Source: an uncultured Actinomycetota bacterium
GTDB lineage: Bacteria; Actinomycetota; Actinomycetes; Propionibacteriales; Nocardioidaceae
Direction of reading: 5' to 3'
DNA length: 32,000 bases
Assembly (NCBI GenBank): GCA_963706355.1
Contig: CAVPLS010000005.1
Span: forward strand, 549,898-581,897
The translations under genes and the position numbers were made by a program. The number at the start of each line of letters is the position of its first letter. The stretch's first letter is position 1. The notes under the pieces were generated by a model. That model searched no databases, had not been told where the DNA came from, and saw nothing but the letters and a program-made list of their open reading frames with translations. Shown here in pieces: positions 8,424 through 13,540 of this stretch.

Positions 8424-9620
8424 CTAGTCGATCACCCGGAGCCGGACCGTCTCCGGCACGGCCTGGAGGCTGGCCATCACCTCGGGCGAGAGGCCCGATC
8501 CGGTGTCCGTCACGACGTACCCGGTGTGACCGCGGGTGGCGAGCACCTGCCCGCCGATGTTCACGTCGTGCTCGGCGAGAACCTGGTTGACGTGCGCGAG
8601 CACGCCCGGGGTGTTCTGGTGGATGTGCGCGATCCGCTGCGCGTGTGCGGAGCGGCCGGGGGTGAGGGTCGGGAGGTTCACCGACAGCGACGTGCTGCCG
8701 TAGAGCACGTAGTCGCGGAGCTTGCCGCCGACGAAGCGACCGATGTCCTCCTGCGCCTCCTCGGTCGACCCGCCGACGTGCGGGGTGAGGATCACGTTCG
8801 GCAGCCCGCGCAAAGGTGACTCGAACGCGTCGCCGCGGCCCTTCGGCTCGGTGGGGAACACGTCGACCGCCGCACCCGCGACATGGCCGGAGACCACGCT
8901 GTCGCGCAGCGCCTCGTAGTCCACGACGAAGCCGCGCGACAGGTTCAGGAACAGCGACCGCGGTCGCATCCGGGCGAGCTGCTCGGCCCCGAAGATGCCG
9001 GCGTTCCCGGCCCGGCCGTCGACGTGCAGGGTGACCGTCTCGACGGTGTCGAGCAGCTCCTCGAGCGACGAGCACCGCTTGGCGTTGCCGAGGGCCAGCT
9101 TGTCGTCGGTGTCGTAGAAGTAGACCTGCATGCCGAGCATCTCCGCGACCACGGAGAGCTGCGAGCCGATGTTGCCGTAGCCCACGATGCCGAGGGTGCG
9201 ACCGCGGATCTCGTGGCTGCCGGTCGCCGACTTGTCCCAGACGCCCGCGTGCAGCGCCTTGTCGCGCTCGGTGAGCCGGCGGGCCATCGCGATGATGTTG
9301 GCCACCGCCAGCTCCACGACCGAGCGGGTGTTGGAGAAGGGTGCGTTGAAGGCCGCGATGCCGTGCTGGGTCGCGGCGTCCAGCGCGATCTGGTTGGTGC
9401 CGATGCAGAAGGCACCGATCGCGACCAGCTCCGGCCGGGCCTCGAGCACCCGCGGCGTGACCTCGGTCTTGGAGCGGATGCCGAGCAGGTCGACGCCGTC
9501 CAGCGCCGCGATCAGCTCGTCCTCGTCGAGCGCCGACGACCGGGCGTCGACCTCGATCCCGGCCTCGCCGAGGATCGTCGACGCCAACGGGTGCAGGTTC
9601 TCCAGGAGCAGTGCTTTCAC
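8424..9620 (-). CDS. serA: D-3-phosphoglycerate dehydrogenase (E. coli-type, with C-terminal ACT domain)
   Basis: Near-collinear with E. coli SerA: AIGAFCIGTNQIALDAA, FNAPFSNTRSVVEL, LGIVGYGNIGSQL, TPHVGGSTEEAQE, HIHQNTPGVLA. The GTG at 9620 (VKALLLENLH) gives 398 aa. The GTG at 9755 would add an Arg-rich, non-conserved extension. Confidence 0.9.
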   Translation of the reverse strand: MKALLLENLHPLASTILGEAGIEVDARSSALDEDELIAALDGVDLLGIRSKTEVTPRVLEARPELVAIGAFCIGTNQIALDAATQHGIAAFNAPFSNTRSVVELAVANIIAMARRLTERDKALHAGVWDKSATGSHEIRGRTLGIVGYGNIGSQLSVVAEMLGMQVYFYDTDDKLALGNAKRCSSLEELLDTVETVTLHVDGRAGNAGIFGAEQLARMRPRSLFLNLSRGFVVDYEALRDSVVSGHVAGAAVDVFPTEPKGRGDAFESPLRGLPNVILTPHVGGSTEEAQEDIGRFVGGKLRDYVLYGSTSLSVNLPTLTPGRSAHAQRIAHIHQNTPGVLAHVNQVLAEHDVNIGGQVLATRGHTGYVVTDTGSGLSPEVMASLQAVPETVRLRVID

Positions 9621-9796
9621 GCCCCCACTGTCCCAGGAGACCTCGACGGCTCCGGTGCCGACCCTGCTCGCGTGGACACGTCGGCTCTTGACCTGGGCAA
9701 CATTCGCTATGTCGGGGGACCGCCTCGTGGTGCTGTACTGGGCAGGTCGCCCCACGCAGCAGTCCGTCTACGCCTGCGCCCGGGGAGGTGGTCCAC

Positions 9797-10231
9797 ATGG
9801 ACATGACGGCAGACGACCCCACCTGGGAGCGGCTGGAGGACCAGCTCGCCTGGTACGACGGCAAGAGCCGCGACAACCAGCGCCGTTACAAGTGGCTCAA
9901 GCTGCTCGAGCTCGCGGTCGCAGCGGCACTCCCCGTCGTGGCTGCGCTGGAGAGCCCGGTGTGGCTGACCGGCGGGCTGGCCGCGGTGATCGTCGTGCTC
10001 GAAGGCGCCCAGCACCTGTTCCAGTTCCAGGAGCACTGGATCACCTACCGCTCCACCGCCGAGGCGCTGAAGCACGAGCGCTACCTGTACCTCGCGCAGG
10101 CGGGTCCGTACGCCGGCGAGGCCCGGCACCGCCAGCTGGCGGAGCGGCTCGAGGGGCTGATCTCCCAGGAGCACGCGAAGTGGACGGCCAGCCACCGGGA
10201 CACGCACGGTCAAGGGGAGGACGAGACATGA
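9797..10231 (+). CDS. DUF4231 / SLATT-superfamily 2-TM protein
   Basis: The ATG at 9797 lies 8 nt after GGGGAGG (9782-9788); the alternative GTG is at 9788. WYDGKSRDNQRRYKWLKLLE is followed by two hydrophobic helices (LAVAAALPVVAAL and WLTGGLAAVIVVLEGAQHLF). Then comes the family-typical W-I-T-Y-R-S-T-A-E-A-L-K-H-E-R-Y-L-Y-L motif. The stop overlaps the next start (ATGA). Confidence 0.82.
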   Translation: MDMTADDPTWERLEDQLAWYDGKSRDNQRRYKWLKLLELAVAAALPVVAALESPVWLTGGLAAVIVVLEGAQHLFQFQEHWITYRSTAEALKHERYLYLAQAGPYAGEARHRQLAERLEGLISQEHAKWTASHRDTHGQGEDET

Positions 10232-11157
10232 GCGGCATCTTCCTGAGCTACCGACGCGACGACGCATCGGGCTGGGCCGGGCGTCTCTACGAGCATCTCG
10301 TGCGTGACTGGGGAACCGATCACGTGTTCATGGACATCGACACCATCGCGCCGGGTGAGGACTTCCGGAAGGCGATCGCGCGGACGATGGACACCTGCGA
10401 CGTCGTGATGATCGTGATCGGGCCCAACTGGATCGACGCCCGCGACCAGGCGGGGCGGCGCCGCCTCGAGCAGGAGAGCGACACGCACCGGGCGGAGGTC
10501 GTCGCCGCGCTGTCGGCCGACGTCCGGGTCGTCCCCGTCCTCGTGGGCGGTGCGACCATGCCGGCGATGAACCAGCTGCCGGGTCCCATGCAGGAGCTGG
10601 TCTACCGCAACGCCGCGATCGTGGAGGACCGCAGGTTCGCCAGTGACGTCGATGCCCTGCAACGCACGCTGAGAGGACTGACAGCGCCGACCGACCACAG
10701 CGAGCCGCAAGAGGTCTCCACGGAGCCGGGGGCGAGGATGGCGGAGCCGGTGCGCGCCGTCCCGCGGAGGCCGTCCCCCGCCGGTCCGTCGGAGCAGACC
10801 GGCGCGTGGGTGCTCGTCCTGGTCGGCGCGGCCATGGTCCTTCTCTGGGGTGTCCTGCTGCCGCGGGGCTGGCACAACGAGTTCGGGGCCATCAGGGTCA
10901 TCGGCGGTGTGCTGCTGCTGGCCGGCGTGGCTGCGGGACTGTGGATGCGACGGTGGACGTGGGTGCTCGCCGCAGGAGCTGTCGGGTTGACCGGGTTCGT
11001 GCTCTGGATGCTCCAGCTGCTCAGCACGCACGGCGACGAGGTCGGTGAGCTCTTCGGGTTCGGGTACGACGGGCTCGGCAACACCGCGACGTTCGTCGGC
11101 GCTGTCCTGGTGCTGGTGGGTGGCGCGATCGGCGCACGGAACGAACGCGCCGGCTGA
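10228..11157 (+). CDS. TIR-domain protein with C-terminal 4-TM module
   Basis: 309 aa. The ATG follows AAGGGGAGGA. The TIR_2-type N-terminus reads GIFLSYRRDDASGWAGRLYEHL, DVVMIVIGPNW, THRAEVVAAL and VVPVLVGGATMP. A Pro/Glu-rich linker covers aa ~150-190. Four hydrophobic helices follow (WVLVLVGAAMVLLWGVLL, IRVIGGVLLLAGVAAGLWM, WTWVLAAGAVGLTGFVLWMLQLL, ATFVGAVLVLVGGAIG). Confidence 0.88.
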   Translation: MSGIFLSYRRDDASGWAGRLYEHLVRDWGTDHVFMDIDTIAPGEDFRKAIARTMDTCDVVMIVIGPNWIDARDQAGRRRLEQESDTHRAEVVAALSADVRVVPVLVGGATMPAMNQLPGPMQELVYRNAAIVEDRRFASDVDALQRTLRGLTAPTDHSEPQEVSTEPGARMAEPVRAVPRRPSPAGPSEQTGAWVLVLVGAAMVLLWGVLLPRGWHNEFGAIRVIGGVLLLAGVAAGLWMRRWTWVLAAGAVGLTGFVLWMLQLLSTHGDEVGELFGFGYDGLGNTATFVGAVLVLVGGAIGARNERAG

Positions 11158-11189
11158 CCGACCCGAAGGCCGCGCTGGAACCGCGTTAG

Positions 11190-11690
11190 TGCGCCGACCG
11201 GCGACGGCTGCTCGACCGGGCCCTGCAGACCGTGCAGCGGCGCGAGGGCAAGAAGCCCTCCGCCGTGGTGAACGAGCTGGCCAAGAAGCTGCGGCCGGAG
11301 CTCTACCAGCGCCTCGAGACGGCCGGCATCCTGCGCGCCGAGCGGAACAGGCTCCTGGGCGTCTTCCCGACCACGGTGTGGCCGACGGCCTCGGCCGACC
11401 ACGAGACCGCCGTACGACGCGCGATCACGTCGGCGCTGGTGCAGGGGCTGACGCCGGAGCCGAGGGCCGGCGCACTCGTCGCGCTGCTGCACGCGCTCCG
11501 GGTCACCCACAAGGTCGTCGTGCCCAAGGAGCACGGGCTCCGCCGCCGCGAGGTCGACCGTCGCGCCAAGGAGATCGCCGAGGGCAGCTGGGGATCCCAG
11601 GCGGTGCGCGACGCGGTCGACGCGATGATGGTCGCGGTGACGGCGGCGGTCACCGCCAGCACGGCGGCGGCGACCGCGTCGAGCGGCTGA
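11190..11690 (+). pseudogene. GPP34/GOLPH3-family protein, 5-prime-truncated (remnant ORF 11232-11690)
   Basis: LLDRALQTVQRREGKKPSAVVNELAKKLRPELYQRLETAGILRAE..LGVFPTT..DHETAVRRAI..PEPRAGALVALLHAL is collinear with the central and C-terminal parts of bacterial GPP34 proteins. The roughly 65-75-aa N-terminal region is absent. Homology continues upstream of the GTG at 11232 and stops at an in-frame TAG (11187-11189), 30 nt after the TIR stop. Confidence 0.72.
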
Positions 11691-11721: not shown

Positions 11722-13540
11722 TTGACTACCGGCGTGACCCCACCCGACACCGGACGACGACCGCGCGTGCGCGCCCCCGAGCTGCACGGACGCGGCTGGC
11801 TGAACACCGGCGGCGCGGACCTGAGCCTCGCCGAGCTGCGCGGCCGCTTCGTGCTGCTCGACTTCTGGGCGTTCTGCTGCATCAACTGCCTGCACGTCCT
11901 CGACGAGCTGCGGCCCGTCGAGGAGAAGTACGACGGTGAGCTCGTCGTCGTCGGCGTGCACTCGCCGAAGTTCGTGCACGAGGCCGACGCGGACGCTCTG
12001 GCCGCTGCCGTCGAGCGCTACGACGTCGAGCACCCGGTCCTCGACGACCCCGAGCTGGTGACCTGGCAGGCCTACACCGCACGGGCCTGGCCGACGCTGG
12101 TCCTCGTCGACCCCGAGGGCTACGTCGTCGCGCAGTACGCCGGCGAGGGACACGCGCACGCGATCGACGCGCTCGTCGCGGAGCTCCGCGAGGTGCACGC
12201 CGCCCGAGGCACGCTCCAGCCCGGTGACTCGCCCTACGTCGCACCCGAGCCCCAAGCAGGTGATCTCAGGTTCCCGGCGAAGGCGATCGCCCTTGCCGGC
12301 AAGGGCTTCCTCGTCGCCGACGCGGGACACCACAGCCTGGTCGAGCTGGAGCCCGACGCCGAGACCGTCGTCCGCAGGATCGGGTCCGGCGAGCGCGGAC
12401 TCGTGGACGGCGGCCCCGACGACGCGCGCCTCAACGAGCCCAACGGCCTGTGCCTACTGCCCGATGACGTCGCGGCCGAGGTCGGCTACGACGTCGTGGT
12501 CGCCGACACCGTGAACCACGCGCTGCGCGGCGTACACCTGGGGAGCGGCACCGTCAGCACGCTGGCCGGCACCGGGCACCAGCTCATGCAGGGCGACCGG
12601 GACACGGGTGCGCTGTCGAGCCCGTGGGACGTGACCTGGTGGCAGGACCGGGTGTGGGTGGCGATGGCCGGCGTGCACCAGCTCTGGACCTTCGACCCGC
12701 GCACCGGCAGCACCGAGGTCGCCGCCGGGACCGCCAACGAGGGGCTGCTCGACGGTCCCCTCGTCGACGCGTGGTTCGCGCAGACCTCGGGCTTCGCTCC
12801 GGCCGGCTGACCGGCTCTGGATCGCCGACAGCGAGACGTCCAGCGTGCGCTACGTCGAGGGCGACGCCGTGCACACCGTTGTCGGCAGCGGGCTGTTCGA
12901 CTTCGGCTTCCAGGACGGCGACGCCGACCAGGCGTTGTTCCAGCACCCGCTCGGCGTCACGGTGCTGCCCGACGGCTCGGTCGCGGTGTGCGACACCTAC
13001 AACGGGGCGGTGCGGAGGATCACCGACGGTGTCGTCAGCACGATCGCCACGGGCCTGGCCGAGCCCAGCGGCGCCGTCGTGGACGGAGACCACCTCGTCG
13101 TCGTCGAGTCGGCCGCGCACCGACTGACCCGAGTGCCCCTGGCGGGGATCGCGACCGCCGACGGTTTCGCGCACACGACCACGCGGCCGGTCACCGAGAT
13201 CGCCGGCGGCGACCTGGAGATCGTCGTCGACTTCACCCCGCCGCCCGGGCAGAAGGTCGACGACCGGTTCGGTCCGCCGTCGCAGCTGTTCGTGTCCTCG
13301 ACCCCTCCCGGCCTGATCCGTCGGGGCGAGGGCCGCGGCACCGACCTCACCCGCGTCGTCGGCATCGACGCCGCGGTCGGCGACGGCGTGTTGCACGTCG
13401 CCGCCCGTGCCGCCTCCTGCGACGCGCACGGGGGAGAGGGCGCCGCGTGCCACCTGCACCAGCAGGACTGGGGCGTGCCCGTCCGCGTCACCCCCGACGG
13501 CGCGGCGCGATTGGTCCTCCCCCTGTCCGGCCGCTCGTGA
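11722..13540 (+). pseudogene. Thioredoxin-like + NHL-repeat protein, split by a frameshift near 12808
   Basis: ORF 11722-12810 carries the redoxin part (LLDFWAFCCINCLHVLDEL) and the first NHL repeats, and ends ..AQTSGFAPAG-TGA. The +1 frame then continues DRLWIADSETSSVRYVEGD..LFDFGFQDG..TYNGAVRRI to 13540. Removing one base around 12805-12810 restores a single protein of about 605 aa. The alternative start is the GTG at 11767 (VRAPEL). Confidence 0.8.

Follow-up and report, generated by a model that had tools for sequence, protein, structure and literature searches.

A SARM1-like TIR protein with a four-helix membrane tail, overlapping a SLATT gene, in an uncultured soil actinobacterium

TIR genes adjacent to genes for SLATT membrane proteins are an already known kind of operon. 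Type VII Thoeris, defined as a TIR protein (ThsB) plus a SLATT effector (ThsH) and reported in Actinomycetota, protects E. coli and B. subtilis against phages. Canonical cyclic ADP-ribose (cADPR) is made in a phage-dependent manner, toxicity is specific to cADPR, and ThsH is predicted to form oligomers that have basic pockets where protomers meet (Yirmiya et al., bioRxiv 10.64898/2025.12.03.692087, December 2025). Here we analysed a 32,000-nucleotide stretch of DNA (hereafter the window; G+C ~70%) from an uncultured soil Actinomycetota bacterium (NCBI GenBank assembly GCA_963706355.1, contig CAVPLS010000005.1, positions 549,898 to 581,897 of the forward strand), in which a SLATT gene is overlapped by a gene for a TIR protein with a C-terminal module of four predicted transmembrane (TM) helices (hereafter 4TM). 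An earlier note on this DNA had held that such a pair had not been studied experimentally, which stands for the TIR-4TM architecture but not for TIR-SLATT operons, since these have been validated as type VII Thoeris (10.64898/2025.12.03.692087).

As in type VII Thoeris, the window holds a TIR gene and a SLATT-family gene in one operon, here on the same strand with an ATGA overlap. The TIR domain, however, is a SARM1-like member of TIR_2, whereas type VII TIRs belong to ThsB_TIR (PF08937), and PADLOC and NCBIfam models yielded only partial, sub-threshold ThsB-type matches to it, along with a weak partial SAVED-TIR match over the TIR region (PADLOC). Two further differences are the C-terminal 4TM module, which would make the presumed sensor membrane-embedded, and a location outside a defence island. 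Because all three components and the genomic setting differ, we do not file the locus as a member of type VII Thoeris and consider it most likely a divergent relative, or unusual variant, of that system. A type-VII-like locus found via a ThsB homologue on a Neorhizobium petrolearium plasmid (NZ_CP123001.1, here L164; related loci are given L numbers throughout) similarly has a DUF4231-annotated gene followed by an abutting TIR gene, within an arrangement of two TIR genes flanking one tandem-SLATT gene, ThsB_TIR - (SLATT_3+SLATT_1) - ThsB_TIR (1105-2995). L164 thus encodes two ThsB paralogues, and adjoins queuosine-pathway-like genes and an IS630 transposase.

The two-TM SLATT protein is also the presumed nucleotide-responsive effector of SLOG/SMODS-SLATT conflict systems and, as a 2TM effector, of cyclic-oligonucleotide-based antiphage signalling systems (CBASS) (Burroughs et al. 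2015). In contrast to these systems, no CD-NTase/SMODS or SLOG gene, nor the pyrimidine cyclase expected of a Pycsar system, was found among the annotated open reading frames (ORFs) of the window, which leaves the TIR protein as the sole candidate for producing a signal. With bacterial multidomain TIR_2 proteins (TIR-WD40, TIR-TPR, TIR-RDD, TIR-FGE), the window protein shares a TIR clade (up to 76% identity) and a design of N-terminal TIR plus variable C-terminal module, but in its case that module is a distinct and very rare four-helix bundle with no Pfam model. Its TIR domain has its best sequence and fold match in the PDB to SARM1 and TIR-1; unlike SARM1, the window protein is bacterial, predicted to be membrane-tethered, and without ARM or SAM domains, so that the 4TM module would have to provide for its oligomerisation and regulation. 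Known bacterial TIR defence sensors (ThsB, TIR-STING, TIR-APAZ, SpbK) reside in the cytoplasm and respond to phage proteins or nucleotides.

The TIR domain and its membrane tail

The TIR gene (10228-11157, + strand) translates into 309 aa followed by a stop codon, and its TIR domain is SARM1-like by both sequence and fold. Pfam TIR_2 (PF13676) matched aa 4-112 (E 1.3e-13, 51.9 bits against a cut-off of 28), and a phmmer search of all PDB sequences returned only human SARM1 TIR chains (E 1.2e-5). We modelled the protein with AlphaFold2 (AF2) from 46 full-length homologues, the same set on which the residue invariance and charge counts below are based. The model has a mean predicted local distance difference test score (pLDDT) of 87, and includes a compact TIR fold over aa 1-152, where pLDDT is ~90. 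The top 30 Foldseek matches of this model were all SARM1 or C. elegans TIR-1 (target TM-score 0.75-0.88), and TIRs from plants (Roq1) and Toll-like receptors as well as AbTir, PdTIR, BtpA and B. cereus ThsB were matched only at E values of at least 2e-3. By AF2 and conservation, the fold reaches ~aa 152, past the Pfam boundary at aa 112, which slightly extends the domain of aa 1-~148 outlined in the earlier note.

In the phmmer alignment, with SARM1 residues counted from D563 in the full-length chains, F5-L-S-Y-R-R10 (including the SYRR motif, aa 7-10) aligns with SARM1 F565-I-S-Y-R-R570, D36 with D594, the BB-loop glycine G43 with G601, and D85-T-H-R-A-E90 with D637-W-V-H-K-E642. E90 (GAG, 10495-10497), previously singled out as the likely catalytic glutamate, is thus aligned with the catalytic E642 of SARM1, and it is invariant in 46/46 homologues. 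The same holds for S7, Y8, R9, R10, D36, D38, P42, G43, W68, H87 and R88, a set that contains the BB-loop residues (D36-x-D38...P42-G43) for which an alignment check had been proposed. From these alignments, the TIR domain looks catalytically competent.

The TIR domain is followed by a linker whose low complexity had been noted before: the string aa 152-190 is 21% Pro, 13% Ala and 13% Glu, is disordered in the AF2 model (pLDDT <50 for aa 156-173 and 178-182), differs among homologues in both length and sequence, with many insertions and deletions (indels), and has a nearly neutral ratio of nonsynonymous to synonymous substitution rates (dN/dS 0.79-0.82). Beyond it, the four hydrophobic stretches reported from the sequence appear as Kyte-Doolittle peaks at aa 193-211, 220-240, 244-264 and 283-303, which coincide with four AF2 helices (aa 187-210, 220-240, 243-267 and 282-308) forming a bundle over aa 187-308. 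When the C-terminal 124 residues were modelled alone, this bundle reached a pLDDT of 95 and a predicted TM-score (pTM) of 0.88; structure prediction, which the earlier note had suggested as a check, therefore returned both a TIR fold and a four-helix membrane bundle. All four sequence features described in that note are thus confirmed, with slight shifts of their boundaries, and its interpretation is supported in part. The features of the locus are as follows, with the evidence in brackets.

9797-10231, + strand: SLATT_1/DUF4231 gene, 144 aa from ATG 9797 (Pfam, NCBIfam, gene calls in relatives)
10228-10231, + strand: ATGA overlap of the SLATT stop and TIR start (read from the sequence; same in L001, L081, L082 and L168)
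10228-11157, + strand: TIR-linker-4TM gene, 309 aa plus stop (translation, homologues, third-codon-position G+C 0.89)
10228-10683, + strand: SARM1-like TIR domain, aa 1-152 (Pfam TIR_2, phmmer, Foldseek, invariant columns, dN/dS 0.086)
10495-10497, + strand: GAG codon of E90, predicted catalytic Glu (aligned with SARM1 E642; invariant 46/46)
10684-10785, + strand: disordered Pro/Ala/Glu-rich linker, aa 153-186 (AF2 pLDDT <50, indels, dN/dS 0.79-0.82)
10786-10857, + strand: TM helix 1, aa 187-210, predicted inside-to-outside orientation (hydropathy, AF2, charge)
10870-10881, + strand: W215-H216-N-E218 motif in the predicted TM1-TM2 outer loop (invariant in two alignments; loop charge)
10885-10947, + strand: TM helix 2, aa 220-240 (hydropathy, AF2)
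10954-11028, + strand: TM helix 3, aa 243-267, with the cytoplasmic basic turn M-R-R just before it (hydropathy, AF2, charge)
11068-11082, + strand: D281-G282-x-x-N285 motif, closing the acidic outer loop ahead of TM4 (invariant columns, charge)
11071-11151, + strand: TM helix 4, aa 282-308, with a short basic cytoplasmic tail at its end (hydropathy, AF2, charge)

The orientation of the module can be predicted from the distribution of basic (K+R) and acidic (D+E) residues in the homologues, given here as mean counts per protein.

Before TM1: K+R 3.4, D+E 1.6
TM1-2 loop: K+R 0.9, D+E 1.9
TM2-3 turn (3 residues): K+R 1.5, D+E 0.07
TM3-4 loop: K+R 0.2, D+E 3.4
C-terminal tail: K+R 2.3, D+E 0.6

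Because basic residues are enriched before TM1, in the TM2-3 turn and in the C-terminal tail, and the TM1-2 and TM3-4 loops are acidic, the positive-inside rule predicts an N-in/C-in topology with a cytoplasmic TIR domain, in agreement with the earlier proposal of a TIR tethered to the cytoplasmic side of the membrane. The invariant polar residues of the module (W215-H216-x-E218 and D281-G282-x-x-N285) both lie in predicted outer loops. No Pfam family passed its cut-off for the 4TM module (best NapE, 17.6 bits against 25; not RDD), and the Foldseek matches were all generic four-helix membrane bundles (claudin, MP20, TARP) at E values of at least 0.2, from which we claim no homology. The module is rare: when 1.84 billion cluster representatives were searched exhaustively with its profile, 27 proteins carrying it were recovered, mostly TIR-4TM proteins or fragments. 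An internal duplication relating TM1-2 to TM3-4, prompted by a 12-nt direct repeat, was rejected (hhalign probability only 10%).

Exchange of heads, tails and partners

The upstream gene encodes a single-domain SLATT protein of 144 aa (9797-10231), matched by Pfam DUF4231 (E 1.5e-28, 99.7 bits against 24.7) and SLATT_1 (2e-10) and by NCBIfam SLATT_1 (128 bits against a cut-off of 41). The mechanically called ORF begins at GTG 9788, which is probably not the start, as relatives (L001, L081) are called at 144 aa and a GGAGG lies ~9 nt before ATG 9797. The protein has two TM segments (hydrophobic peaks at ~aa 34-52 and 52-71), the second followed by a cytoplasmic stretch, WITYRSTAE-LK-E-YLYL, that is invariant among 67 unique relatives. 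A GGAGG also stands 8-9 nt ahead of the TIR gene ATG at 10228, and the ATGA overlap of the two genes suggests translational coupling. The third-codon-position G+C of the TIR gene (0.89) matches that of the surrounding coding genes.

The TIR-linker-4TM architecture is more than a chance occurrence, as it recurs in ~50 database proteins at 47-91% identity, and its pairing with SLATT is confined to the closest of these relatives, at 72% identity or more. The pair was found in a near-identical contig from a metagenome-assembled genome (MAG; L001), in a 95%-identical syntenic contig (L081, TIR-4TM 91% identical), and, with flanking genes different from those of the window, in L082 (74%) and L168 (72%). 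No SLATT gene adjoins the TIR-4TM gene in L169 (69%), in L083 (64%), or in any of the representative-genome loci examined (L002-L010 and L035, 37-59%), which come from Actinomycetes, Acidimicrobiia, and unclassified Actinomycetota or bacterial MAGs and in which TIR-4TM stands alone among unrelated genes. These lone genes (L002-L010, L035, L083, L169) rule out that DUF4231 and TIR-4TM are always paired. In L081 (8001-8931), the TIR-4TM orthologue carries a 1-nt insertion at gene position ~786, in TM3, which splits it into ORFs of 273 and 34 aa. With this insertion corrected, the frame is conserved to the end, and since the window itself has single-base indels relative to L081 in neighbouring genes, the frameshift may be an assembly error rather than decay.

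Both halves of the TIR-4TM protein occur in other combinations. The 4TM module is fused to an N-terminal CHAT domain in protein P0124 (563 aa) and to a caspase-like domain with a HEAT repeat in P0122, and TIR domains up to 76% identical to that of the window carry RDD, WD40, SH3 or FGE-sulfatase C-termini. Judging from these fusions, the TIR-4TM protein is made of two independently shuffled parts, a death-effector-type enzymatic head (TIR, CHAT or caspase) and a variable tail, and given this exchange of heads the tail is most simply read as an input or localisation module. The CHAT and caspase fusions suggest more specifically that 4TM is a sensor or an anchor, and such head swapping is typical of sensor or anchor modules in conflict systems. 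The tail also evolves faster than the head (dN/dS 0.24-0.44 against 0.09). The CHAT-4TM gene (L167, 225-2944) is followed by IS3-type transposase ORFs (HTH_Tnp_1, HTH_21), a mobile context unlike that of the window locus.

From the SLATT side, we surveyed 80 loci from soil metagenomes whose SLATT proteins share 74-89% identity with that of the window. A related TIR gene lies alongside the SLATT gene in ~30 of the 80, and in ~24 of the ~37 with at least 1.5 kb of upstream sequence; it is usually upstream and co-directional, or divergent, so that gene order varies, and in many cases a SLATT gene of this subfamily has no TIR gene next to it. The C-termini of the SLATT-linked TIRs comprise one TM segment plus a beta-sandwich or a WD40 or PD40 propeller, DUF4190, or five TM segments, and some of these proteins are soluble without any TM segment (TIR-WD40 in L100, TIR-HEAT-like in L117) next to a SLATT ~80% identical to that of the window. 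Since TIR C-termini vary beside the same SLATT subfamily, the constant partners are the TIR domain and SLATT, not the membrane tail, which favours communication through the TIR domain, by either a diffusible product or a cytoplasmic contact.

Several of these loci display additional features. In L170 (1-4113), which looks like a TIR/SLOG/SLATT nucleotide-signalling cluster, an LSDAT_prok(SLOG)-SLATT_1 operon is accompanied by a TIR fragment and by two TIR_2 genes, one of 492 aa and the other encoding a 370-aa protein with a TIR domain ~75% identical to that of the window. LSDAT(SLOG)-SLATT_1 is a classic combination of nucleotide sensor and pore, and its position between TIR_2 genes would fit nucleotide signalling to SLATT. 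Directly downstream of a close SLATT homologue, L134 (3371-3907) has a 179-aa ORF (MRRMDSDPD...GVSCLADGADQIFA...) that looks SLOG/LOG-like by eye. Many SLATT-linked TIRs (L122, L133, L135, L138, L151, L157, L158, L091, L040, L047) have a receptor-like layout of N-terminal TIR, Pro-rich linker, one TM segment and a C-terminal domain of ~200-300 aa predicted to lie outside, which is a WD40 or PD40 beta-propeller, a DUF5067-like beta-sandwich, or unmatched. An extracytoplasmic WD40 domain would be unusual.

Selection and genomic surroundings

Relative to L081, dN/dS is 0.067 for SLATT and 0.086 for the TIR domain, as compared to 0.05 for serA and 0.08 for the DEAD helicase, so that by this measure both SLATT and TIR-4TM are clearly functional genes under strong purifying selection. 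Selection and conservation together rule out a pseudogene or non-functional ORF. The surroundings of the SLATT-TIR pair are ordinary, with genes for S10 peptidase, glyoxalase and serA on one side and, among others, GPP34-like, redoxin/NHL, DEAD helicase, acyl-CoA dehydrogenase, TetR and alcohol dehydrogenase genes on the other. A repeat search for the signature of a mobile cassette found no meaningful direct or inverted repeats flanking the SLATT-TIR locus, and a scan of 9400-11500, which is uninformative for a high-GC actinobacterium, found no match to a sigma-70-type promoter or intrinsic terminator.

Two of the downstream genes are disrupted relative to L081. Between 11190 and 11690, ~174 bp are missing (junction ~11194-11198), so that the GPP34-like gene lacks its start and its initial ~58 codons, and there is a further 1-nt gap at 11206; the residual ORF (11232-11690) matches only positions 75-201 of the Pfam GPP34 profile, and the gene is probably truncated or dead. 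The AhpC-TSA/thioredoxin/NHL gene, a single 590-aa ORF in L081, is broken into two ORFs in the window (11722-12810 and 12845-13540), where one nucleotide is inserted into a CCGGCCGGC run at ~12807, either a real frameshift or an assembly error, and single-base frameshifts in these assemblies should therefore be read with caution. Farther away, the - strand carries a rifampin ADP-ribosyltransferase gene (2404-2853; Pfam Arr-ms, E 1.6e-48), which is NAD+-using, likely confers intrinsic rifamycin resistance, and is unrelated to the TIR locus.

Competing explanations and significance

The reading we favour, and to which we would give an even chance, is that SLATT and TIR-4TM form a two-gene, membrane-based cell-suicide or defence module, in which sensing by 4TM would lead to NAD+ cleavage by TIR and then to a SLATT response. 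The 4TM bundle would be the input module, with its invariant His, Glu, Asp and Asn residues facing outside, and an envelope-level event (phage adsorption, injection of DNA, a disturbed membrane or cell wall, or ligand binding) would alter its packing or oligomeric state. TIR enzymes that cleave NAD+ (NADases) need self-association to form their active site, and the change in 4TM would gather the tethered TIR domains into an active state. SARM1 makes cADPR; the activated TIR, being SARM1-like, would cleave NAD+ with ADP-ribose and canonical cADPR as the probable products, and either the product or the loss of NAD+ itself would halt the cell. In the SLATT-paired sub-clade, the nucleotide product would also drive SLATT to form an oligomer that breaches the membrane, as has been proposed for ThsH. 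In this chain we infer what triggers the bundle, that oligomerisation activates the TIR, which product is made, how SLATT responds, and a role in defence. The module is supported by the ATGA coupling, which is kept in the different contexts of L082 and L168 as well as in the window and L081, by the purifying selection on both genes, by the co-occurrence of this SLATT subfamily with TIR genes, by the head swapping on 4TM, by the L170 cluster, and by the cADPR-based phage defence of TIR-SLATT operons (10.64898/2025.12.03.692087).

A number of observations weigh against this reading. On the side of known systems, BLASTP of the window TIR gave no match at E <= 10 to the three type VII ThsB TIR domains compared from Table S1 of the Thoeris survey (two from phage-validated systems, one from a system giving no defence), and a motif search of part of that table found no close relative. 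In L164, one type-VII-like locus that is itself untested, the effector is a 289-aa SLATT_3+SLATT_1 tandem as compared to the single SLATT_1 of 144 aa here, which aligns only with its SLATT_1 (C-terminal) half (27% identity, E 2e-5). No PADLOC model matched the SLATT gene. As for chemistry, the position of SARM1 W638, an aromatic residue lining the active site, is T86 here (T in 36, N in 9 and S in 1 of the 46 homologues) and is followed by an invariant His, unlike in SARM1; distant bacterial relatives have F or W there, within a D-F-V-R-L-E motif. Given this Thr/Asn/Ser, the product chemistry may differ from that of SARM1. The genomic setting is not a defence island: there are no defence or mobility genes among the annotated ORFs neighbouring the locus in the window, and the same housekeeping synteny is found in the 95%-identical L081. 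Both proteins are unusually conserved for defence genes (SLATT relatives being 74-89% identical). A search of IMG/VR phage contigs gave no relative, and a plasmid search yielded no full-length relative, only TIR-domain-only matches at 32-38% identity on five plasmids. Finally, most TIR-4TM homologues, from 69% identity down, lack a SLATT gene, which indicates that the TIR-4TM protein can work alone.

This last point underlies a rather improbable but still serious alternative, that TIR-4TM is an autonomous sensor-effector depleting NAD+ once its membrane module is triggered, and that SLATT is a later add-on in this sub-clade, acting as a second, independent effector or as a regulator or brake and receiving no signal made by the TIR. 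Besides the lone TIR-4TM genes listed above, it would account for the TIR-RDD relatives, whose TIR domains are 74-76% identical and which likewise stand alone, for CHAT-4TM without a SLATT neighbour, and for the many SLATT subfamily members without a TIR neighbour. However, the ATGA coupling is retained in several genomic contexts, the SLATT subfamily strongly co-occurs with TIR genes, and TIR-to-SLATT signalling has a validated precedent (10.64898/2025.12.03.692087). The housekeeping context and the synteny shared with L081 could instead reflect a vertically inherited module on the core chromosome of Actinomycetota, in which NAD+-derived nucleotides serve envelope-stress or developmental signalling or cell death outside of defence. 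The dN/dS values, as low as those of neighbouring housekeeping genes, the closely similar SLATT relatives in many soil contigs, the absence of relatives from phage contigs and of full-length copies from plasmids in the searches above, and the link of TIR, caspase and SLATT systems to multicellular prokaryotes drawn by comparative genomics (PMC7159879) are all consistent with such a role. We nonetheless consider it unlikely: the distribution is patchy, with SLATT partners repeatedly gained and lost and neighbours changing, domain swapping is rampant in both halves, as is typical of conflict systems, and CHAT-4TM lies beside IS-type transposase genes.

The earlier note had offered three roles for the 4TM module, as an effector pore, a docking site for the two-TM SLATT protein, or a sensor of envelope perturbation. 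Docking into one hetero-oligomeric pore, or a 4TM bundle that is itself a TIR-gated pore effector, could be envisioned given that both proteins are membrane-embedded, that their genes overlap and may be coupled, and that the module evolves faster than the TIR domain (dN/dS 0.24-0.44). We judge either form very unlikely, and docking in particular is disfavoured, as SLATTs 74-89% identical adjoin TIRs with one, five or no TM segments, including ~80%-identical SLATTs partnering the TM-less TIR-WD40 and TIR-HEAT-like proteins or TIRs with unrelated TM modules, and most 4TM proteins have no SLATT partner. In addition, enzymatic executioner heads (TIR, CHAT, caspase) would make a pore role redundant, and no channel was matched significantly by Foldseek (E at least 0.2). 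Of the three roles, a sensor fits best, with head swapping and the invariant polar outer-loop residues both pointing that way. A more specific form of this idea, which we advance only tentatively and as less likely than not to hold, is that 4TM is an outside-facing sensor whose two outer loops hold a His/Glu/Asp/Asn site, and that the window protein belongs to a wider, unrecognised "receptor-type" class of bacterial TIRs. In this class, a SARM1-like TIR in the cytoplasm would be joined through a membrane span to a variable sensor that is extracytoplasmic or intramembrane (4TM, or one TM segment plus a beta-propeller or beta-sandwich).

The locus widens the TIR-SLATT theme to another clade of TIRs, to a SLATT reduced to a single domain, and to uncultured soil Actinomycetota, in which such systems lie in the core chromosome. 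A TIR NADase with a conserved membrane bundle as its sole other module would sense at or in the envelope, and among bacterial proteins it would come closest to coupling SARM1 chemistry to a membrane input. The exchange of TIR, CHAT and caspase heads on one 4TM module also represents a clean natural experiment on what this module senses. Should the tail prove to be an outward-facing sensor, it would define receptor-type TIR signalling in bacteria: receptor-type TIRs would relay envelope danger signals inward, into NAD+-derived signalling and a SLATT pore, and would thereby join a Toll-like receptor topology to SARM1-type chemistry.

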